NCBI GenBank assembly: GCA_036271815.1 | Contig: DATAZX010000013.1 | Span: 16,545-80,544 of the forward strand | Length of the DNA: 64,000 nucleotides | Reading direction: 5' to 3' | Source: Solirubrobacteraceae bacterium | GTDB taxonomy: Bacteria; Actinomycetota; Thermoleophilia; Solirubrobacterales; Solirubrobacteraceae | Part shown: one piece after another, positions 4,635-17,494 of the stretch | Numbering within the stretch: position 1 is the first letter of the stretch | How the letters are laid out: the number at the start of each line of letters is the position of its first letter | The notes under the pieces: model-generated | What the model was told of the DNA's origin: nothing | Databases searched by the model: none | What the model saw: only the letters and a program-made list of their open reading frames with translations | Program-made: the position numbers and the translations under genes

Positions 4635-7600
4635 TCACCGGCGCCTCCCCGCGGCGAAGCTCTGGACCGCGGGCGCGACGGCGCGGAAGTCGTCGGTTCC
4701 GGTCGCGGCGACCTCGACCTCGGCCTGGCGGGCGAGCTCGGCGAGGTCCAGCGGGGAGATGTCCTTGACCTCGGTCGCGATGCGATCGGGGACCTCGAGC
4801 CGCAGCACGCGCCGCGCGAGCAGGTTGATCGCACCGCCCGCCGAGGCGTGGCGCTCGAGCCGGCCCTCGACGAGCAGCAGCGGCTCCGTGCGCACCGCGA
4901 GGCGATCGCGCTCGTAGACCTGCGGCGAGACGACGACGTTGATCGTGCCGTGCTCGTCCTCGAGCAGCAGGAAGAGGATCCCCTTCGCCGTCCCGGGGCG
5001 CTGGCGCGCGACGACGAGCCCGCCGACGCGCACCTCGGCGCCGTGCGGCAGGCGGGCGAGCGCGTCGATCCCGACCGCGCGGTTGGCGCGCAGCCGCTCG
5101 CGCAGCAGCTCGATCGGGTGCGCCGCCGCGGTCAGCCCGGTGGTGGCGTAGTCGGCGATCATCGCCTCCCACGCCGGCAGCGGCTCGAGCCTGGGCGGCG
5201 CCGGCAGGTCGAGCCCGAGCGAGAGCTGCACGCCGACGGTCCGGATCTCCGTCGAGGGCTTGGCCGCGCGAGCATCGGATCCGGGGGCCGCTCGGGCACG
5301 CGCACCTCGTGCGGCCGTCCGCGTGCGGATCTGGATCCCCGGCGCGGCGACCCCGAGCCGCCACAGCGCGACCCGGCGATCGCCGCCGGCAAGCGCGTCG
5401 CAGGCGCCCGACCAGGCGAGGCGCTCGAGCGCGGAGCGTCCCGCGCCCGCACGCGAGGCGAGATCCTCGAGCGAGGCGAACGGCCCGCCGGCCTCGCGGG
5501 CCTCGACGAGCGCGGCGATCTCGCCCGCGCGCACGCCGGCGACATACCCGAGACCGATCCGGACCGCCCCGTCTGCCGTCACCGTGCAGCCGGCGGCGCT
5601 CGCGTTGACGTCGGGGGCGAAGACCTCGATCCCCCGCCGTTGCGCCTCGTGGACCAGCGCGTCGGGCGGATAGAAGCCCATCGGCTGCTCGTCGAGCAGC
5701 GAGCAGAGGAACTCCGGCCCATAGTGCACGCGCAGCCAGGTCGACTGGTAGGCCAGCAGGCCGAAGGCCACGCCGTGGGCCTTCGGGAAGCCGAAGCCCG
5801 AGAAGCCCGAGACCATCTCGAAGACGCGCTCGGCAAGCTCGTCGGTGACGTCTGCGTGCTTCGCCTTCGCCCCTTCGACGAAGCCGCGATGGTGCGCCTC
5901 GATCGCCTCCTCCGAGCGCTTGCGGCTCATCGCCCGGCGTAGATCCTCGGCATCCCCCGCGCTGAAGCCGGCGAACGCCTGTGCGACCTCCAGCACCTGA
6001 TCCTGGAAGATGATCGTGCCGAGCGTGACCTCCAGCGGCTCCTTCAGCGACGGGTGCAGGTAGGGCACCTGGAACGACGGATCGGCGTTCAGCTTCTGGC
6101 GGTTCTCGATGTAGGGGTTGACGGCGCCGCCGACGATCGGCCCCGGCCGCACGATCGCGACCTGGATCGTGATCTCCTCGAGGTTCTTCGGGCGCGTGCG
6201 CCGCAGCGAGCCCATCTGCGCGCGCGACTCGATCTGGAAGACGCCGGTCGTCTCGGCGTTCTGGATGCACTCGTAGGTCGCGGGGTCCTCGAACGAGATC
6301 CGCGACAGGTCGATGCGCTCGCCGCGCCGCTGCGCGACGTGGTCGATGCAGCGCTCCACGGCGCTCAGCATCCCCAGGCCGAGCAGGTCGATCTTCAGGA
6401 AGCCCGCGTCCGCGCAGGAGTCCTTGTCCCACTGCGCGAGCTGGCGGCCCTCCATCGCGGCCGGTACGAGCGGGACGCAGTCGACGAGCGGCCGGGTCGC
6501 GACGATCATCCCGCCGGAGTGCTGGGAGAGATGGCGCGGCAGGCCCTGCGCCTCGGCGGCCAGACGGGCGAGCCACGCCCAGCGACCGGTGCGCCTTCCG
6601 GGACCGAGCGCCGCGTCGATGTCGCGGTCGACGTCGCCCGTCGACCAGCCCTCGCTGCCGCGCGCGACGCGCTCGATCTCGCCCGGCGGCAGGCCGAGCG
6701 CCTTGCCGAGCTCGCGAATCGCCCCGCGGGCGCGGTAGGTCGGGAAGGCGGCCACGAGCGCGGAGCGCTCGATGCCGTATTCCTCGTGGACGCGCGGGAT
6801 CAGCTTCTCGCGGATCTCGCGCGGGAAGTCGAGGTCGATGTCGGGCAGCGCCGTGAGGTCCTCGCTGAGGAAGCGCCCGAGCAGCAGCTTGTTGGCGATC
6901 GGGTCGACGTGGCTGAGGCCCGTGAGGTGGCAGACGATCGACGAGACGCTCGACCCGCGCCCGCGGCCCGGCGGCAGCAGCGCCCGCGCGCTGTCCGGGC
7001 CACGCACCTGCACGGCGATCTCGCGCGCGAGCTCGAGGATCTCGCGATGCAGGACGAAGAACCCCGCGAGGCCGAGCGAGCCGATCACGCGCAGCTCCGC
7101 CTCGAGACGAGCCGTCGCCTCGGCTCGGTGCTCGGACCCCTTCCCCGTCAGGGGATAGCGCTCGTCGAAGCGCGCGCGGCAGATCTCGGCGAGCTCGCGG
7201 TCGGAACCGGCGTCGTCGGCGCCGGGGTAGCGATAGCCGAGGTCCGTCGTGAGGTCGAAGGTCAGTCGCTGCGCGAGCGCCTGCGTCTCGGCGATCGCCT
7301 CTGGGTGATCGCAGAAGCGCGCGGCCATCGCCTGTGGGGTGCAGAGCACGTGCGCGTGGTTGCCGCGGCGCAGCGGCTCGGAGGCGTCGAGCGTCGCGTG
7401 CTCGCGGATCGCGACGAGCGCGTCCTGCAGCAGCGCGCGCTCGGCGGTGTGGGCATGGACGTTGCCGGTCGCGACGGTCGTGACCCCGAGCCGCGCGGCG
7501 AGCGCGGACAGCGCGCGGTTCAGCGCGCGGTCGTGGCGGGCGAGCGGGCGCTGCAGCTCGACGCGGAGGTCGTCGCGACCGAAGACGCCGAGCAGGCGGC

Positions 7601-8024
7601 GCATCGTCGGCTCGTCGCGCACGCCACGGGCCGCACAGCCGCTGAGGCAGATGAGGCCGTCGCGGTGACGCTCGACGTCGTCGAGCGAGACCGAGGGCTC
7701 CGTGCGGTCGCGCTGCGGCCCCTCGCGCGTGTGCGCGTGGGCCTTCGTCACGAGCCGGCAGAGGTTGCGCCAGCCGGTGTCGTCGCGAACGAGCAGCGTG
7801 ATGTGGCGGGCGTCGTCGAGCGTCACCTCCGCCCCGTGGATCGCGCGCAGGCCGAGCGACCTCGCCGCCTGCGCGAACTCCATCGATCCCGACAGCGAAT
7901 CGTGATCGGTGAGCGCCATCGCGCCGTGCCCCAGGCGCAGCGCCGCCGCGACGAGCTCCTCGGGCTGGGAGGCGCCGTCCAGGAAGGAGTAGGCGGAGTG
8001 GGCGTGCAGCTCGACGTACGACAT
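4635..8024 (-). CDS. dnaE2: error-prone DNA polymerase III alpha subunit (DnaE2-type)
   Basis: PHP domain start MSYVELHAHSAYSFLDGAS, polymerase core (GVFQIESRAQM, PGPI) and an OB fold, about 1129 aa. An SOS box lies directly upstream. The start is set at the ATG at 8024, not the 22-codon upstream extension. Confidence 0.85.
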   Translation of the reverse strand: MSYVELHAHSAYSFLDGASQPEELVAAALRLGHGAMALTDHDSLSGSMEFAQAARSLGLRAIHGAEVTLDDARHITLLVRDDTGWRNLCRLVTKAHAHTREGPQRDRTEPSVSLDDVERHRDGLICLSGCAARGVRDEPTMRRLLGVFGRDDLRVELQRPLARHDRALNRALSALAARLGVTTVATGNVHAHTAERALLQDALVAIREHATLDASEPLRRGNHAHVLCTPQAMAARFCDHPEAIAETQALAQRLTFDLTTDLGYRYPGADDAGSDRELAEICRARFDERYPLTGKGSEHRAEATARLEAELRVIGSLGLAGFFVLHREILELAREIAVQVRGPDSARALLPPGRGRGSSVSSIVCHLTGLSHVDPIANKLLLGRFLSEDLTALPDIDLDFPREIREKLIPRVHEEYGIERSALVAAFPTYRARGAIRELGKALGLPPGEIERVARGSEGWSTGDVDRDIDAALGPGRRTGRWAWLARLAAEAQGLPRHLSQHSGGMIVATRPLVDCVPLVPAAMEGRQLAQWDKDSCADAGFLKIDLLGLGMLSAVERCIDHVAQRRGERIDLSRISFEDPATYECIQNAETTGVFQIESRAQMGSLRRTRPKNLEEITIQVAIVRPGPIVGGAVNPYIENRQKLNADPSFQVPYLHPSLKEPLEVTLGTIIFQDQVLEVAQAFAGFSAGDAEDLRRAMSRKRSEEAIEAHHRGFVEGAKAKHADVTDELAERVFEMVSGFSGFGFPKAHGVAFGLLAYQSTWLRVHYGPEFLCSLLDEQPMGFYPPDALVHEAQRRGIEVFAPDVNASAAGCTVTADGAVRIGLGYVAGVRAGEIAALVEAREAGGPFASLEDLASRAGAGRSALERLAWSGACDALAGGDRRVALWRLGVAAPGIQIRTRTAARGARARAAPGSDARAAKPSTEIRTVGVQLSLGLDLPAPPRLEPLPAWEAMIADYATTGLTAAAHPIELLRERLRANRAVGIDALARLPHGAEVRVGGLVVARQRPGTAKGILFLLLEDEHGTINVVVSPQVYERDRLAVRTEPLLLVEGRLERHASAGGAINLLARRVLRLEVPDRIATEVKDISPLDLAELARQAEVEVAATGTDDFRAVAPAVQSFAAGRRR

Positions 8025-8025
8025 G

Positions 8026-8039
8026 CGAACAGATGTTCG
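8026..8039. promoter_or_regulatory. LexA (SOS) box CGAAC-AGAT-GTTCG
   Basis: Perfect palindrome matching the actinobacterial / Gram-positive SOS consensus (CGAAC-N4-GTTCG). It lies 1 nt upstream of the dnaE2 start codon. Confidence 0.65.
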
Positions 8040-8046
8040 CAGAGCG

Positions 8047-8061
8047 CCCGGATAAACCGGG
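8047..8061. terminator. stem-loop CCCGG-ATAAA-CCGGG (probable tRNA-Gln trailer hairpin; likely intron target motif)
   Basis: A 5-bp stem with a 5-nt loop, seen directly. It lies 5 nt upstream of the inferred intron 5' end on the + strand. Confidence 0.4.
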
Positions 8062-8447
8062 ATGGAGTGAGGAATGAGAGAGTCCGACATCGAAGGAGTA
8101 GCGATCCACGGTGGCCCCGAGTCATGCGTTGGCGTTCGTGAGGGCGTCGGCGAAGCGTTGACAGGGGTACACGTAGGCTGGGCTATTGAGCCGCGAAATC
8201 CATGGTTCCGGGGTGCCGACGTCGTTGCGAAAGGCGGAAGGCAACATCGGCGACAGCGCTATCGCGAGCTGTCGTCGGACCCTGCGCGGTCAGTGAACCT
8301 GTGCATGCGTGGAAGCTCCATCCGCGAGAACGGGGAGGTCCCGTGGTTGCTCGTGCCGGTCGATGATGCCCCGCCCTTGATGGTTCGCGGGGTGGCAGGT
8401 CGGCTGGTGGCGGGCCGCGGGGGGAACGCCAAGGCGGTAAGCCCCCG

Positions 8448-9938
8448 ATGAACGACGATGGGAAGTCAGACGGCCTCGTAGTACCTGCGAAGCTGCCGAA
8501 CAACACCGATTCGTCGGTGGCGGAGGTGGTGGAGGGAAGGAGGCCGGCCAAGGGAAACGCGGCCAGCAAAACGCGTCCCGGACACCGAGCCGGGTCAGAC
8601 GCGCCGAGTGCGCTGGATCGCGTGCGCCACAGCGCGCAGCAAGACAAGGAGGCACGGTTCACCGCGCTCCTGCACCATGTCGATGTCGATCGTCTGCGAG
8701 CGGCCTATCGGGCGTTGAACCCGCGGGCTGCGACGGGGACTGACGGCGTGACGTGGGCGGCCTACGGCCAGGATCTCGAAGCGAACCTTCGCGATCTGCA
8801 TGGTCGGGTGCATCGCGGGAGCTACCGGGCGAAGCCGACGAGAAGGGTGTACATCCCGAAGTCCGATGGGCGCAGGCGCCCGTTGGGGATCGCCGCACTG
8901 GAGGACAAGATCGTCCAGCGCGCCGTCGTGGAGGTGCTCAACGGCATCTATGAGACGGACTTCCTCGGCTTCTCCTACGGATTTCGGCCGGGTCGGTCAG
9001 CGCATGATGCGCTGGACGCGCTCGCGGCCGGGATCTATGGCCGGAAGGTGAGCTGGGTGCTCGACGCGGACATCCGCGACTTCTTCGGCCAGCTCGATCA
9101 GGGCTGGCTGAAGCGGTTTCTCGAGCACCGCATCGCAGACCGGAGGGTCCTGCGCCTGATTGACAAGTGGTTGGGCGCGGGAGTCATCGAGGACGGGAAA
9201 TGGACCAGGACCGAGGGTGGGACGGCGCAGGGAGCATCGGCATCGCCGCTGCTGGCCAACGTCTACCTGCACTACGTCTTGGACCTCTGGGCCCATCAAT
9301 GGAGAGGACGCAACGCGCACGGCGAGATGATCATCGTGCGGTACGCCGACGACTACATCGTGGGGTTTGAACGCGAGCGAGACGCCCGCCAGTTCCTCGC
9401 CGACCTTCGCGACAGACTCGCGAGGTTCAGCTTGGAGTTGGCGCCCGAGAAGACGCGGCTGATCGAGTTCGGGCGGCTCGCCGCCCGAGACCGCAAGCGG
9501 CGCGGACAGGGCAAGCCGGAGACGTTCGATTTCCTGGGCTTCAAGCACTGCTGCTCGAAGACCAAGAACGGGCGGTTCATGCTCAAGCGCATCACGATCG
9601 CCAAACGGATGCGGACCAAGCTGCGCGAGGTCAAGGACGACCTCAAACGGCGCCGTCATCTCCCGATCCCCGACCAAGGGCGATGGCTGGGCAGCGTGGT
9701 GCGAGGGCACTACGCCTACTACGCCGTGCCCGGCAACAGCGACTCGATCAACGCGTTCTACAACGAGGTCACCCGGTACTGGTACCGGTCGCTACGGCGT
9801 CGAAGCCAGCGCACACGGCTGACCTGGACGCGCATGAGACGCCTCAGCGCTCGATGGCTACCACCCCCCAAACGCATGCACCCCTTCCCCAACGCGCGCT
9901 TCGACGCCAGAACCCAAGGCAGGAGCCCAGTGCGCTAG
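8448..9938 (+). CDS. group II intron reverse transcriptase/maturase (no endonuclease domain evident)
   Basis: RT blocks include RRVYIPKSDGRRRPLGIAALEDKIVQ, QGASASPLLANVYLH and VRYADDYIVGF (YADD). A C-terminal X/maturase region follows (GHYAYYAVPGNS...RYWYRSLRRRSQ). Confidence 0.9.
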   Translation: MNDDGKSDGLVVPAKLPNNTDSSVAEVVEGRRPAKGNAASKTRPGHRAGSDAPSALDRVRHSAQQDKEARFTALLHHVDVDRLRAAYRALNPRAATGTDGVTWAAYGQDLEANLRDLHGRVHRGSYRAKPTRRVYIPKSDGRRRPLGIAALEDKIVQRAVVEVLNGIYETDFLGFSYGFRPGRSAHDALDALAAGIYGRKVSWVLDADIRDFFGQLDQGWLKRFLEHRIADRRVLRLIDKWLGAGVIEDGKWTRTEGGTAQGASASPLLANVYLHYVLDLWAHQWRGRNAHGEMIIVRYADDYIVGFERERDARQFLADLRDRLARFSLELAPEKTRLIEFGRLAARDRKRRGQGKPETFDFLGFKHCCSKTKNGRFMLKRITIAKRMRTKLREVKDDLKRRRHLPIPDQGRWLGSVVRGHYAYYAVPGNSDSINAFYNEVTRYWYRSLRRRSQRTRLTWTRMRRLSARWLPPPKRMHPFPNARFDARTQGRSPVR

Positions 9939-9957
9939 CAGCGCACGCTGGGATCTG

Positions 9958-9993
9958 CGCGGGGGGCCGCCCGAAAGGGCGGTCCCTACCGCG
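9958..9993 (+). ncRNA. group II intron domain V
   Basis: CGCGG-GGGGCCGCCC-GAAA-GGGCGGUCCC-UA-CCGCG. This gives a 5-bp lower helix, a 2-nt 3'-strand bulge, a 10-bp upper helix and a GAAA tetraloop. The catalytic triad position reads CGC rather than AGC, as reported for class C introns. Confidence 0.75.
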
Positions 9994-10017
9994 ATTGACA
10001 GCAGGACGGAAGCTTCA

Positions 10018-10088
10018 CTGGGGAGCCAGGATTCGAACCTGGACGAGCACTTCCAAAGAGTGCCGTGCTGCCATTACACCACTCCCCA
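10018..10088 (-). tRNA. tRNA-Gln (anticodon UUG)
   Basis: UGGGGAG acceptor with a U1-A72 pair, D-loop AAUGGCA, anticodon arm GCACU-CUUUGGA-AGUGC, T-arm CCAGG-UUCGAAU-CCUGG and G73. No encoded CCA. Confidence 0.9.
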
Positions 10089-10135
10089 GTAATTCGGCCA
10101 CAGGGCCTCGGACAAGATAACCCTAGGATGCGCGG

Positions 10136-15592: not shown

Positions 15593-17494
15593 ATGCGCAT
15601 CCTCCGTCCGCTCACACTCGCGACCGCCGCCCTCGTCGCGGCCATCGTCCTCGCCGCGATCGCGATCGCGGGCGCCGCGCCCGCCCAGGCGGCCGACGGC
15701 ATCACCCACGGGACGATCTACCACGACGGCCCGGACAACCGCTACCTGCTCGGCGGCGACTGGCTGTTTCGCCTCGACACGGCCGGCGTCGGGCTCACCC
15801 AGCACTTCCAGCGCCAGACCGCCGACGCCGGCTGGAAGAAGACGAGCGTGCCGAACGCGTGGAACGCCGGCGACAACTCGGTTGCCTCGATGCTCGGCAC
15901 CGTCGGCTGGTATCGCAAGGACTTCCACCTGCCCGACGCGAGCAGCCGGATGGACTGGCTCGTGCGCTTCGAGTCGGTCAACTACCGCTCGCAGGTGTGG
16001 CTGAACGGCACGCCGATCGGCCGCAACACCGGTGCCTACCTGCCGTTCACCCTGCGCTTCCCGGGCTCGGTCCTCAAGCGCAAGGGGCTCAACCACCTCG
16101 TCATCCGCGTCGACAACCGCCGCCTGCCGAGCGACTTCCCGCCGTCCGGCCTCACCGGCGAGGGCGACCCCGCGGGCGGCTGGTGGAACTACGGCGGCCT
16201 GCTGCGCGAGGTCTACCTGCAGCGCGTCGATCGCGTCGACATCTCGAGCCTGCTCGTGCGCCCCGACCTGCCCTGCACGACCTGCGCCTCGAAGGTGCTG
16301 ATGCAGGTCACGGTGCGCAACTACCAGCAGCATCCGGGCCGCGTGAGCATCGACGGCAGCTTCGGCGGCACGGCGGTGAGGCTCGGCACGAAGACGGTGT
16401 CCGCGCGGAGCTTCGCGACGTTCAAGGCATCGGTCCGCGTGGCGCATCCGCAGCTGTGGTCGCCCGCGTCGCCGCATCTGTACAAGGCGCGCTTCACCGT
16501 GCGACTCGCCGGCAAGAAGGTCGTCGGCTGGCACCTGCACAGCGGGATCCGCTCGATCAAGGTCGTCGGCGGGCACCTGCTGCTCAACGGCCGCCAGCTG
16601 CATCTGCGCGGCGTCGGCCTGCACGAGGACGACCTCGTCACCGGGGCCGCGATCACGAGCGCGCGCCGCAAGCAGATCGTCGCGCAGGCCAAGGAGCTCG
16701 GCGCGGACGTGATCCGCGCGCACTACCCGCTGCACCCCGAGCTGCAGGAGCTCGCCGACAGCAAGGGCCTGCTGATCTGGTCGGAGATCCCGGTCTACGC
16801 CGTCAAGACGCAGTACCTCAAGCGCCCCGAGGTCCGCAAGCTGGCCACGCGGATGCTCGAGGAGAACATCGTCGCCAACCAGAACCACCCGTCGATCATG
16901 CTGTGGTCGATCGGCAACGAGCTGTCGTCCAAGCCCGGTCCGGTGCAGGCGGCGTACATCTCGGCGGCAGCGCGCGAGGCGAAGGCGCTGGACCCGACGC
17001 GGCCGGTCGGGCTGGCGATCAACGGCTACCCGTCGGCCGGCTGCCGCCCGCAGTACGGGCCGCTCGATGTGATCGGCGTCAACGAGTACTTCGGCTGGTA
17101 TCCGGGTCCCAACGGCGAGATCGCCGACCGCGACAGCATGTCGGGCTACCTGGACTCCGTCCACGCGTGCTATCCGAACAAGGCGATCTTCATCTCCGAG
17201 TTCGGCGCCGAGGCCAACCGCGACGGGCCGGTCGAGGAGAAGGGCACGTACGCCTACCAGCAGGACTTCGTCAACTACCACCTCGGGGTGTACGCGACGA
17301 AGCCGTGGCTCAGCGGCGCGATCTACTGGGCGTTGCAGGAGTTTCGCGTGCGGCCCAACTGGGACGGCGGCAACCCGCATCCCGACTCGCCGATCCACGC
17401 GAAGGGCCTGCTGCACTTCGACGGCGAGAAGAAGCCCGCCTGGTTCGACGTGCAGCGCATCTACAAGGCGACCGACCAGCTCGGCGGCGGGTAG
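15593..17494 (+). CDS. secreted glycoside hydrolase family 2 (beta-glucuronidase/galactosidase-like)
   Basis: Signal peptide MRILRPLTLATAALVAA...APAQA. Sugar-binding domain (GWYRKDF, VNYRSQVWLNG), then a TIM barrel with NHPSIMLWSIGNE (acid/base) and ISEFGAEA (nucleophile). Confidence 0.85.
   Translation: MRILRPLTLATAALVAAIVLAAIAIAGAAPAQAADGITHGTIYHDGPDNRYLLGGDWLFRLDTAGVGLTQHFQRQTADAGWKKTSVPNAWNAGDNSVASMLGTVGWYRKDFHLPDASSRMDWLVRFESVNYRSQVWLNGTPIGRNTGAYLPFTLRFPGSVLKRKGLNHLVIRVDNRRLPSDFPPSGLTGEGDPAGGWWNYGGLLREVYLQRVDRVDISSLLVRPDLPCTTCASKVLMQVTVRNYQQHPGRVSIDGSFGGTAVRLGTKTVSARSFATFKASVRVAHPQLWSPASPHLYKARFTVRLAGKKVVGWHLHSGIRSIKVVGGHLLLNGRQLHLRGVGLHEDDLVTGAAITSARRKQIVAQAKELGADVIRAHYPLHPELQELADSKGLLIWSEIPVYAVKTQYLKRPEVRKLATRMLEENIVANQNHPSIMLWSIGNELSSKPGPVQAAYISAAAREAKALDPTRPVGLAINGYPSAGCRPQYGPLDVIGVNEYFGWYPGPNGEIADRDSMSGYLDSVHACYPNKAIFISEFGAEANRDGPVEEKGTYAYQQDFVNYHLGVYATKPWLSGAIYWALQEFRVRPNWDGGNPHPDSPIHAKGLLHFDGEKKPAWFDVQRIYKATDQLGGG

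Follow-up and report, generated by a model that had tools for sequence, protein, structure and literature searches.

The DNA analysed, hereafter the window, was a stretch of 64,000 nucleotides (nt) covering positions 16,545 to 80,544 of contig DATAZX010000013.1 from a Solirubrobacteraceae bacterium (assembly GCA_036271815.1; genome G000 below). A dnaE2-like gene and a tRNA-Gln gene, both on the - strand, flank a group II intron on the + strand, and a LexA (SOS) box lies between the intron and dnaE2 (Table 1). The polymerase gene matched the NCBIfam model NF004225, 'error-prone DNA polymerase', at 916 bits versus 632 for DnaE1. Its ATG occupies 8024-8022, a start position conserved in 29 relatives, and is separated from the intron by 17 nt, not by the approximately 40 nt first estimated. 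An initial annotation of the window had reported a group II intron antisense between tRNA-Gln and the dnaE2 SOS promoter, with an intact open reading frame (ORF) for a reverse transcriptase (RT)/maturase. Both points held: the Rfam model RF02005 matched at 8079-8299 with 198 bits, and the 496-residue (aa) product carries RVT_1 and scored 338 bits against TIGR04416 (cutoff 300). The ends, class and target proposed at that time were replaced. Judged from sequence comparison, the element at 8042-9995 is very likely an apparently functional class E (IIB-like) intron belonging to a lineage that homes to LexA operators.

Table 1. Features of the dnaE2/tRNA-Gln locus, in window coordinates
Feature	Position	Strand	Remarks
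dnaE2-like error-prone DNA polymerase gene	4635-8024	-	Pfam PHP, DNA_pol3_alpha, finger, HHH_6, OB
LexA (SOS) box CGAACAGATGTTCG	8026-8039	no strand	perfect, Gram-positive type; 1 nt from dnaE2 start codon
Candidate intron-binding site 2 (IBS2), GATG	8032-8035	+	NATG in all occupied sites
Intron-binding site 1 (IBS1), TTCGCA	8036-8041	+	last six nt of the 5' exon: outer half of the LexA box plus CA
Group II intron, bacterial class E type	8042-9995	+	1,954 nt; from homology limits of the copies, covariation of exon- and intron-binding sites (EBS/IBS), empty sites
First stem-loop of domain I, CCCGG-ATAAA-CCGGG	8047-8061	+	kept in all copies
Domain I-IV core	8079-8299	+	Rfam RF02005 (group-II-D1D4-6), 198 bits, E 3e-59, full model length
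Exon-binding site 3 (EBS3), A	8171	+	pairs with first 3'-exon base, T9996
Exon-binding site 1 (EBS1), UGCGAA	8226-8231	+	domain I hairpin loop; 6-bp complement of IBS1
RT/maturase ORF	8448-9938	+	496 aa, intact, in domain IV; Pfam RVT_1 only
Domain V	9923-9955	+	AGC triad 9924-9926, AC bulge 9945-9946, 5-nt loop UAGCA
Domain VI	9958-9993	+	bulged A9988, 7 nt before the 3' splice site
3' exon spacer	9996-10017	+	22 nt between intron and tRNA-Gln
tRNA-Gln (UUG)	10018-10088	-	U1-A72, discriminator G73 = 10018; Rfam RF00005, 60.7 bits
glmU	beyond tRNA-Gln	+	Pfam

Extent and splice sites of the intron

Whole genomes of 40 relatives were searched for further copies, and approximately 10 full or partial copies were recovered at unrelated loci. 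Similarity among these copies opens at GAGCG (GTGCG or GAACG in some), which corresponds to window position 8042, and ceases at ...CCCTACCGCGAT (CGCGAT), which corresponds to 9995. In the initial annotation the intron had been placed at 8067-10018, from a GUGAG string to a 3' end touching the tRNA, and was described as a class C intron that had used the trailer hairpin of tRNA-Gln as a terminator-like target. The strings on which that model was built are present (GUGAG at 8067, the hairpin CCCGG-ATAAA-CCGGG at 8047-8061 and a hairpin with CGC at 9957-9995), and the element is compact with a hairpin near its 5' end. However, this hairpin and the 25 nt upstream of 8067 are kept in every copy at unrelated loci, IBS1 abuts 8042, and homology ends at 9995, 22 nt short of the tRNA gene (10017-10089 in the ARAGORN prediction). 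The supposed trailer hairpin lies inside the intron, and divergent copies retain its 5 bp via a register-shifting change.

The 5' splice site was set between 8041 and 8042 by covariation of EBS1 with IBS1. Compensatory pairs were found in six lineages, that of the window and five with other 5' exons. In the latter, the EBS1 loops UAACGG (L004), CGAAAA (L009 and L005), UCAGGU (L006), UAAGCG (L007) and CGAAAG (L010) face 5' exon ends reading CCGUUG, UUUUCG, ACCUGA, CGCUUG and CUUUCG, respectively, with up to 7 bp of pairing in L004. Where EBS1 reads UGUGAA (L077 and others), pairing is kept by a G-U wobble. EBS3 is A in all copies with a 3' exon beginning in T and G in all copies with a 3' exon beginning in C, and the switch from A to G was also seen within the clade found at SOS boxes (L077, L082). 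The pattern at A8171 fits EBS3/IBS3 pairing and a 3' splice site between 9995 and 9996. The unpublished genomes G013 (L005) and G004 (L007) contributed two EBS1/IBS1 examples, two 3' exons and one row of the protein tree described below; the conclusions stand without L005 and L007, on L004, L006, L009, L010, L077, L082, L094 and L102.

The EBS2/IBS2 pairing is a weak candidate, with CAUG (8201-8204) in a 13-nt internal loop (8196-8208) facing NAUG in the exon. A 7-bp version, CAUGGUU/AACNAUG, was rejected because the exon register forbids it, which leaves CAUG/NAUG and perhaps GUUC/GAAC across the internal loop.

Two other junctions were recorded. Copies L009 (G015:C50) and L005 (G013:C393), of a related intron approximately 75% identical, follow ...GGTGTTTTTCG, where an IS3-family OrfA-like frame (…LKAASVFF) ends, near the usual frameshift site of such elements. 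In L136 (G350:C27:151804) two junction bases are gone (GTTCGCA-GCGCC versus GTTCGCA-GAGCGCC), which may be an inactivating deletion of the 5' splice site.

The ends were also established from empty sites. The dnaE2 promoter was found without an intron in 29 genomes of the same genus, where CGAAC-N4-GTTCGCA passes at once into native sequence beginning with T; the junction left by deleting 8067-10018 was not the one seen. The dnaE2 empty site of G042 reads GTTCGCATGAC, which is the exact junction predicted by removing 8042-9995. The encoded CCA that had been reconstructed at the 8067-10018 junction arises only when the true discriminator base G73 is removed with the intron. A second locus was found empty in G014 (L036), where an HNH-endonuclease-like gene, an SOS box, a 23-nt spacer and tRNA-Gln follow one another without an intron, and in G015 a 49-nt remnant of the intron 5' end remains at the dinB box. 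The L036 site (G014:C2:391180) reads GCA-AAGCGCCCGGA and has a 10-nt identity with the first bases of the intron, AGCGCCCGGA. This is probably chance, because in length and in the rest of its sequence the spacer agrees with the 3' exon of occupied sites; the alternative would be a trace of an old excision.

Ribozyme domains, encoded protein and class

The helices of domain V comprise 9 lower positions and 4 upper bp, and the stop codon of the RT/maturase (TAG, 9936-9938) falls in its loop. The CGC hairpin at 9957-9995, originally read as domain V, bears the bulged A of domain VI. Over six distinct copies, the proposed pairs of domains V and VI form in 99.4% of cells; for domain VI the figure is 98.9%, with one fully compensatory pair, at the tip. 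The support for both domains is conservation more than covariation, as most positions are invariant. The RNA outside the ORF amounts to 463 nt, and the RT/maturase is without an endonuclease domain according to Pfam and NCBIfam profiles.

Class was assigned by comparison with the Sinorhizobium meliloti GR4 plasmid pRmeGR4b, which is described as carrying one disrupted class E intron (S.me.I4) and one class D RmInt1 copy (PMC5894124). One frameshifted ORF of this plasmid is 55% identical to the window RT/maturase (E 1e-122) and its locus matches RF02005, whereas the one intact ORF is just 33% identical and its locus matches RF01999. Introns of classes IIE and IIF are small and IIB-like, with 450-700 nt without the ORF and a 5-nt domain V loop (Nagy et al. 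2013, PMC3753933). The RNA model, the protein and the 5-nt domain V loop place the window intron in bacterial class E (IIB-like) and not in class C. A sequence search of the Protein Data Bank (PDB) returned the RTs of IIC, IIA and IIB introns all at E 1e-31 to 1e-37, class C scoring no better than the others. The class C trait of a short IBS1 (3-4 nt) without EBS2 is absent: IBS1 extends over 6 bp, and a single-stranded 13-nt loop occupies the EBS2 position. No terminator-like stem-loop was found before 8042, where the 5' exon is the LexA box. With class and ends thus contradicted by the Rfam model, by the other copies and by the EBS/IBS covariation, with an AGC domain V, and with RNA and protein matching class E references, a class C intron at 8067-10018 targeting a tRNA-Gln terminator hairpin is highly improbable, for all that its 3' hairpin contains CGC.

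The class E introns S.me.I4 and Cl.be.I2 (Toro 2002; Nagy et al. 2013, PMC3753933) have in common with the window intron the absence of an endonuclease domain, a 5-nt domain V loop, approximately 460 nt of RNA outside the ORF, EBS1, candidate EBS2 and EBS3 as in IIB-like introns and, at the S.me.I4 locus, the match to RF02005. The window intron differs from both in its target, a GAAC-N4-GTTC LexA operator, in a 5' end reading GAGCG and not GUGCG, in a very short EBS2 pairing and in its host, a Thermoleophilia-type actinobacterium. The class D introns RmInt1 and RmInt2 of S. meliloti resemble it in having an RT/maturase without an endonuclease domain and in site-specific retrohoming via EBS1, EBS2 and EBS3 into repeated genomic sequence. 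RmInt1 belongs to another class, with 33% protein identity and RNA model RF01999, and the targets of RmInt1 and RmInt2 are insertion sequences, not the binding site of a regulator. Class C (IIC) introns are likewise compact, without an endonuclease domain and located beside a palindromic DNA motif of which a genome has many copies. They read a stem-loop by its shape together with a 3-4 nt IBS1, have no EBS2, and land after terminator or attC stem-loops. For the window intron, IBS1 has a full 6 bp and coincides in part with the palindrome, and neither RNA nor protein is of class C type.

Association with LexA boxes

Boxes of the GAAC-N4-GTTC type are the known LexA consensus of actinobacteria and Firmicutes. 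All 14 copies of the SOS sublineage recovered by searches independent of the box lie 2 nt past a LexA box of the CGAAC-N4-GTTCG type. These comprise 4/4 near-identical copies from a homology search and, from searches with the intron sequence only, 2/2 further copies in 401 genomes of the order and 8/8 metagenome contigs, the last two sets at GAAC-N4-GTTC(G/C)CA. At each of the 14 an SOS-type gene on the opposite strand has its start codon directly beside the box, the genes being of dnaE2, dinB, HNH and Rv2578c-type radical SAM kinds, and the intron is always directed away from that gene, 2 nt outside the operator. A second copy in G000, where the initial annotation had advised counting additional copies, is located at the end of contig C86 by the box of an HNH-type gene, and G002 contains two 95% identical copies, one at an HNH-type gene and one at dinB. 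A junction-pattern scan of all species representatives, in which the pattern itself demanded a box, returned more sites in Solirubrobacterales and Thermoleophilaceae bins. These precede dinB, Rv2578c-type radical SAM, HTH-HNH and PD-(D/E)XK genes and a 107-aa ORF. The lineage has entered the promoters of at least seven different SOS-type genes in Solirubrobacterales-type genomes.

The box is very probably that of LexA, judging from the consensus, from the SOS-type genes that it precedes and from lexA of three relatives, which has its own TGCGAACAGATGTTCG box approximately 50 nt upstream. In G002, G014 and G024 (L133, L134 and L132), lexA was located 8-15 kb from dnaE2 on one contig.

The 2-Mb G000 contains only 18 boxes of this kind. 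The string ATGTTCGCA occurs only four times: two occurrences are occupied, one is an empty box (before a radical SAM gene on contig C16) and one is not in a box. From this rarity and occupancy it follows that base pairing alone can explain the specificity, and recognition of the whole box by the intron protein need not be invoked.

An explanation was considered in which the intron carried the SOS box along, as a co-mobilised 5' exon or within a larger repeat. It would account for the approximately 45 nt upstream of 8067, box included, that are common to the window and C86. It is nevertheless extremely improbable, since the same box stands free of any intron before dnaE2 (29 genomes), before the HNH gene (G014) and before the radical SAM gene (G000 C16), and identity between loci ends at the variable central bases of the box.

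Several details of individual target sites were noted. The C16 site (L024; 27407-27421) is an unoccupied perfect 5'-exon site, CGAACACATGTTCGCA followed by TGCTCG, before an Rv2578c-family radical SAM gene, and the orthologous radical SAM site is occupied in other bins (L082, L088/L137, L144). The L024 gene had 'intein-containing Rv2578c family' as its top NCBIfam match, below cutoff, and the L082 gene (positions 4830-6329, MFD05442.bin.2.72) gave weak Hint, intein-splicing and LAGLIDADG Pfam matches, all below cutoffs. At L082 there may be an intein in an SOS gene next to an intron in the promoter of that gene. In the window, a second near-target exists on the minus strand of 8022-8041, as dnaE2 starts GTTCG-C-ATG and GCA followed by TG therefore flanks both sides of the box. 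This sense-orientation site, within the dnaE2 start codon (between A and TG), is unoccupied and has CTG instead of ATG at the IBS2 position.

Proposed homing mechanism, apparent convergence and the tRNA-Gln neighbourhood

In the proposed mechanism, target DNA would be read by RNA-DNA pairing of EBS1 with TTCGCA, of the candidate EBS2 with NATG and of EBS3 with the first base of the 3' exon. The 10-11 target bases would then consist of the promoter-distal half of the CGAAC-N4-GTTCG operator plus CA, and the CA would be the complement of the TG in a TGC-GAACAT extended -10 element. Because the pairing target is the operator half plus CA, every SOS promoter of the clade reading NATGTTCGCA followed by Y would be a landing site. 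Retrohoming is probably primed at replication forks, as in other introns without an endonuclease; priming of this kind is known for RmInt1 and RmInt2.

The dnaE2 promoters of the relatives indicate what an insertion may alter. TGC precedes GAACAT in 28/29 of the aligned, intron-free dnaE2 promoters, and a GTGACA-like hexamer lies 17 nt further upstream in about half of the 29. We infer that TGC-GAACAT is a TG-extended -10 element overlapping the operator and that GTGACA is a -35-like element. In this genus, SOS genes are apparently leaderless, with the box abutting ATG or GTG and the -10 element (GAACAT) within the operator, and the dnaE2 mRNA is probably leaderless as well. Many dnaE2 promoters (relatives L042-L070) also have a CC(A/G)TCC motif after the -35-like hexamer. 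As first suggested, native upstream promoter sequence was displaced by the insertion, the intron lying in the dnaE2 SOS promoter region. Insertion would have taken place between the -35 element and the TG, leaving the operator, the -10 element and the dnaE2 start codon intact, shifting the upstream sequence, including the -35-like GTGACA, 1,954 bp away and presumably weakening the dnaE2 promoter.

Some observations weigh against a functional class E intron homing to LexA operators. The Rfam model for domains V-VI, RF00029, gave no match even when a 151-nt slice was searched at E up to 10, so that the case for these domains is built from pair counts and from their conservation in the copies, and within the AGC triad of domain V the G opposes an A. 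The EBS2/IBS2 pairing spans just 3-4 bp, the fourth pair being a G-G mismatch in the window copy. When the surroundings of the intron were scanned for the sigma-70 consensus, neither strand gave a promoter, including the + strand from which the intron would be transcribed. The class E call depends on one named reference, which is known through its description in PMC5894124. LexA binding at the boxes is deduced from motif and gene content, and lexA was not found in G000, a 68%-complete bin. Most of the intron copies come from metagenome-assembled genomes.

The silence of RF00029 and the absence of a recognisable intron promoter would also suit an immobile relic, positioned by one old event and spread by descent or by gene conversion of promoters. 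This explanation is nonetheless unlikely. The 496-aa ORF is intact and scores above the TIGR04416 cutoff, domains V and VI are intact, and EBS/IBS complementarity is present at every site. The second G000 copy is exact over the 100 bases compared, 95% identical copies stand at other genes in G002, and occupancy of orthologous sites varies between genomes.

A comparable arrangement was found outside the actinobacteria. The 'ltrA' intron of pKPN3 (Kl.pn.I5 / Se.ma.I1) matches RF02005 with 187 bits, and the encoded protein shares 55% identity with that of the window intron. It lies 1 nt past a perfect LexA box, with CTGTATATATATACAG-T preceding the intron start GTGCG, and its EBS1 region is complementary to ACAGT. 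It is directed away from an opposite-strand gene, the start of which reads by eye like a umuD homologue. A copy on a Cupriavidus plasmid is arranged as on pKPN3. Both Kl.pn.I5 and the window intron are located 1-2 nt outside a LexA operator and have an EBS1 complementary to a half-site, but the operator of Kl.pn.I5 is of the gammaproteobacterial CTGT-N8-ACAG type and its EBS1 is different for that reason. The sites of Kl.pn.I5 have been called 'intergenic regions with conserved IBS' (Leclercq and Cordaux 2012, PMC3522654). In the literature on group II introns with LexA, the SOS box or retrohoming, no description of this target was found.

In a tree of the encoded proteins, the SOS-box copies from Solirubrobacterales grouped together (support 90/99), nested among actinobacterial copies that have other targets, in a clade that is itself supported (97/97). 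The copies from Klebsiella and Cupriavidus paired in a separate supported clade (99/99), joined by a branch supported at 94/96 to a sister pair from Methylocystis and S. meliloti pMl2. Within this sister pair, the target of the Methylocystis copy is different. The window intron is not in the Kl.pn.I5 clade. In this small tree sample, targeting of LexA boxes looks to have arisen at least twice, on two unrelated operators, and the habit common to the Kl.pn.I5 and window lineages looks convergent.

These two class E lineages, with EBS1 tuned to two unrelated operators, are the ground for a broader and distinctly tentative proposal: LexA operators would be a selected landing pad and not an accident of base pairing, retrohoming would be confined to the SOS response, and the insertions would rewire part of the SOS regulon. 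Occupancy by LexA would shield the site in unstressed cells. During an SOS response the operator would be free, and stalled forks would provide single-stranded DNA and primers, as suits an intron that has no endonuclease. With each insertion, a repair gene or a gene for a mutagenic polymerase would, as a side effect, have its -35 and -10 elements separated. We consider this possible but a good deal less probable than homing to LexA operators as such. If LexA occupancy does gate integration, the system would offer a simple example, from nature, of retrotransposition that depends on stress.

The bacterial group II introns known so far keep from doing harm by inserting into attC sites, downstream of terminators or into other mobile elements. 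The LexA operator would be a strategy unlike these, a target that is short, strongly conserved, present in multiple copies and intergenic, and one by which a retroelement is physically tied to the DNA-damage regulon. As the error-prone polymerases dnaE2 and dinB are among the genes hit, insertions could alter stress-induced mutagenesis. For annotation, the locus also indicates that when the ends of an intron are placed by GUGYG-like strings and neighbouring hairpins, they can be off by tens of bases.

The tRNA-Gln side of the window requires separate consideration. G002 (L003, occupied) and G014 (L036, empty) have spacers of 23-24 nt between the HNH-gene box and tRNA-Gln, and their sequence is similar to that of the window at 9996-10017. 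From this similarity, the window segment is taken to be orthologous to the HNH-gene/tRNA-Gln spacer of relatives. There is about an even chance that the adjacency of dnaE2 and tRNA-Gln is either an assembler mis-join via the repeated intron or a true recombination of two copies that inverted a segment. In the case of a mis-join, the 3' flank in the window (tRNA-Gln and glmU) would belong to the HNH-gene copy stranded at the end of C86. Consistent with either of these, C86 stops behind the HNH-gene SOS box after 100 nt of an identical intron copy; in G002 an unbroken run leads from the HNH gene through the intron to tRNA-Gln; in G014 the HNH gene is a direct neighbour of tRNA-Gln, with no intron between them; the spacers of both genomes match 9996-10017; and tRNA-Gln stands beside dnaE2 in 0/29 relatives. 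On the other side, the 68%-complete bin yielded no contig with the fourth arm, in which the 3' end of an intron would continue into a flank of the kind seen upstream of dnaE2. When G000 was searched with the region upstream of dnaE2 from the closest relative, G054, the lone match was 72% identical and on a contig not otherwise linked to the locus. Repeated introns can in this way yield misleading gene neighbourhoods in metagenome bins. In G014 the two sites are mutually inverted on one contig, so that an inversion is mechanically possible.

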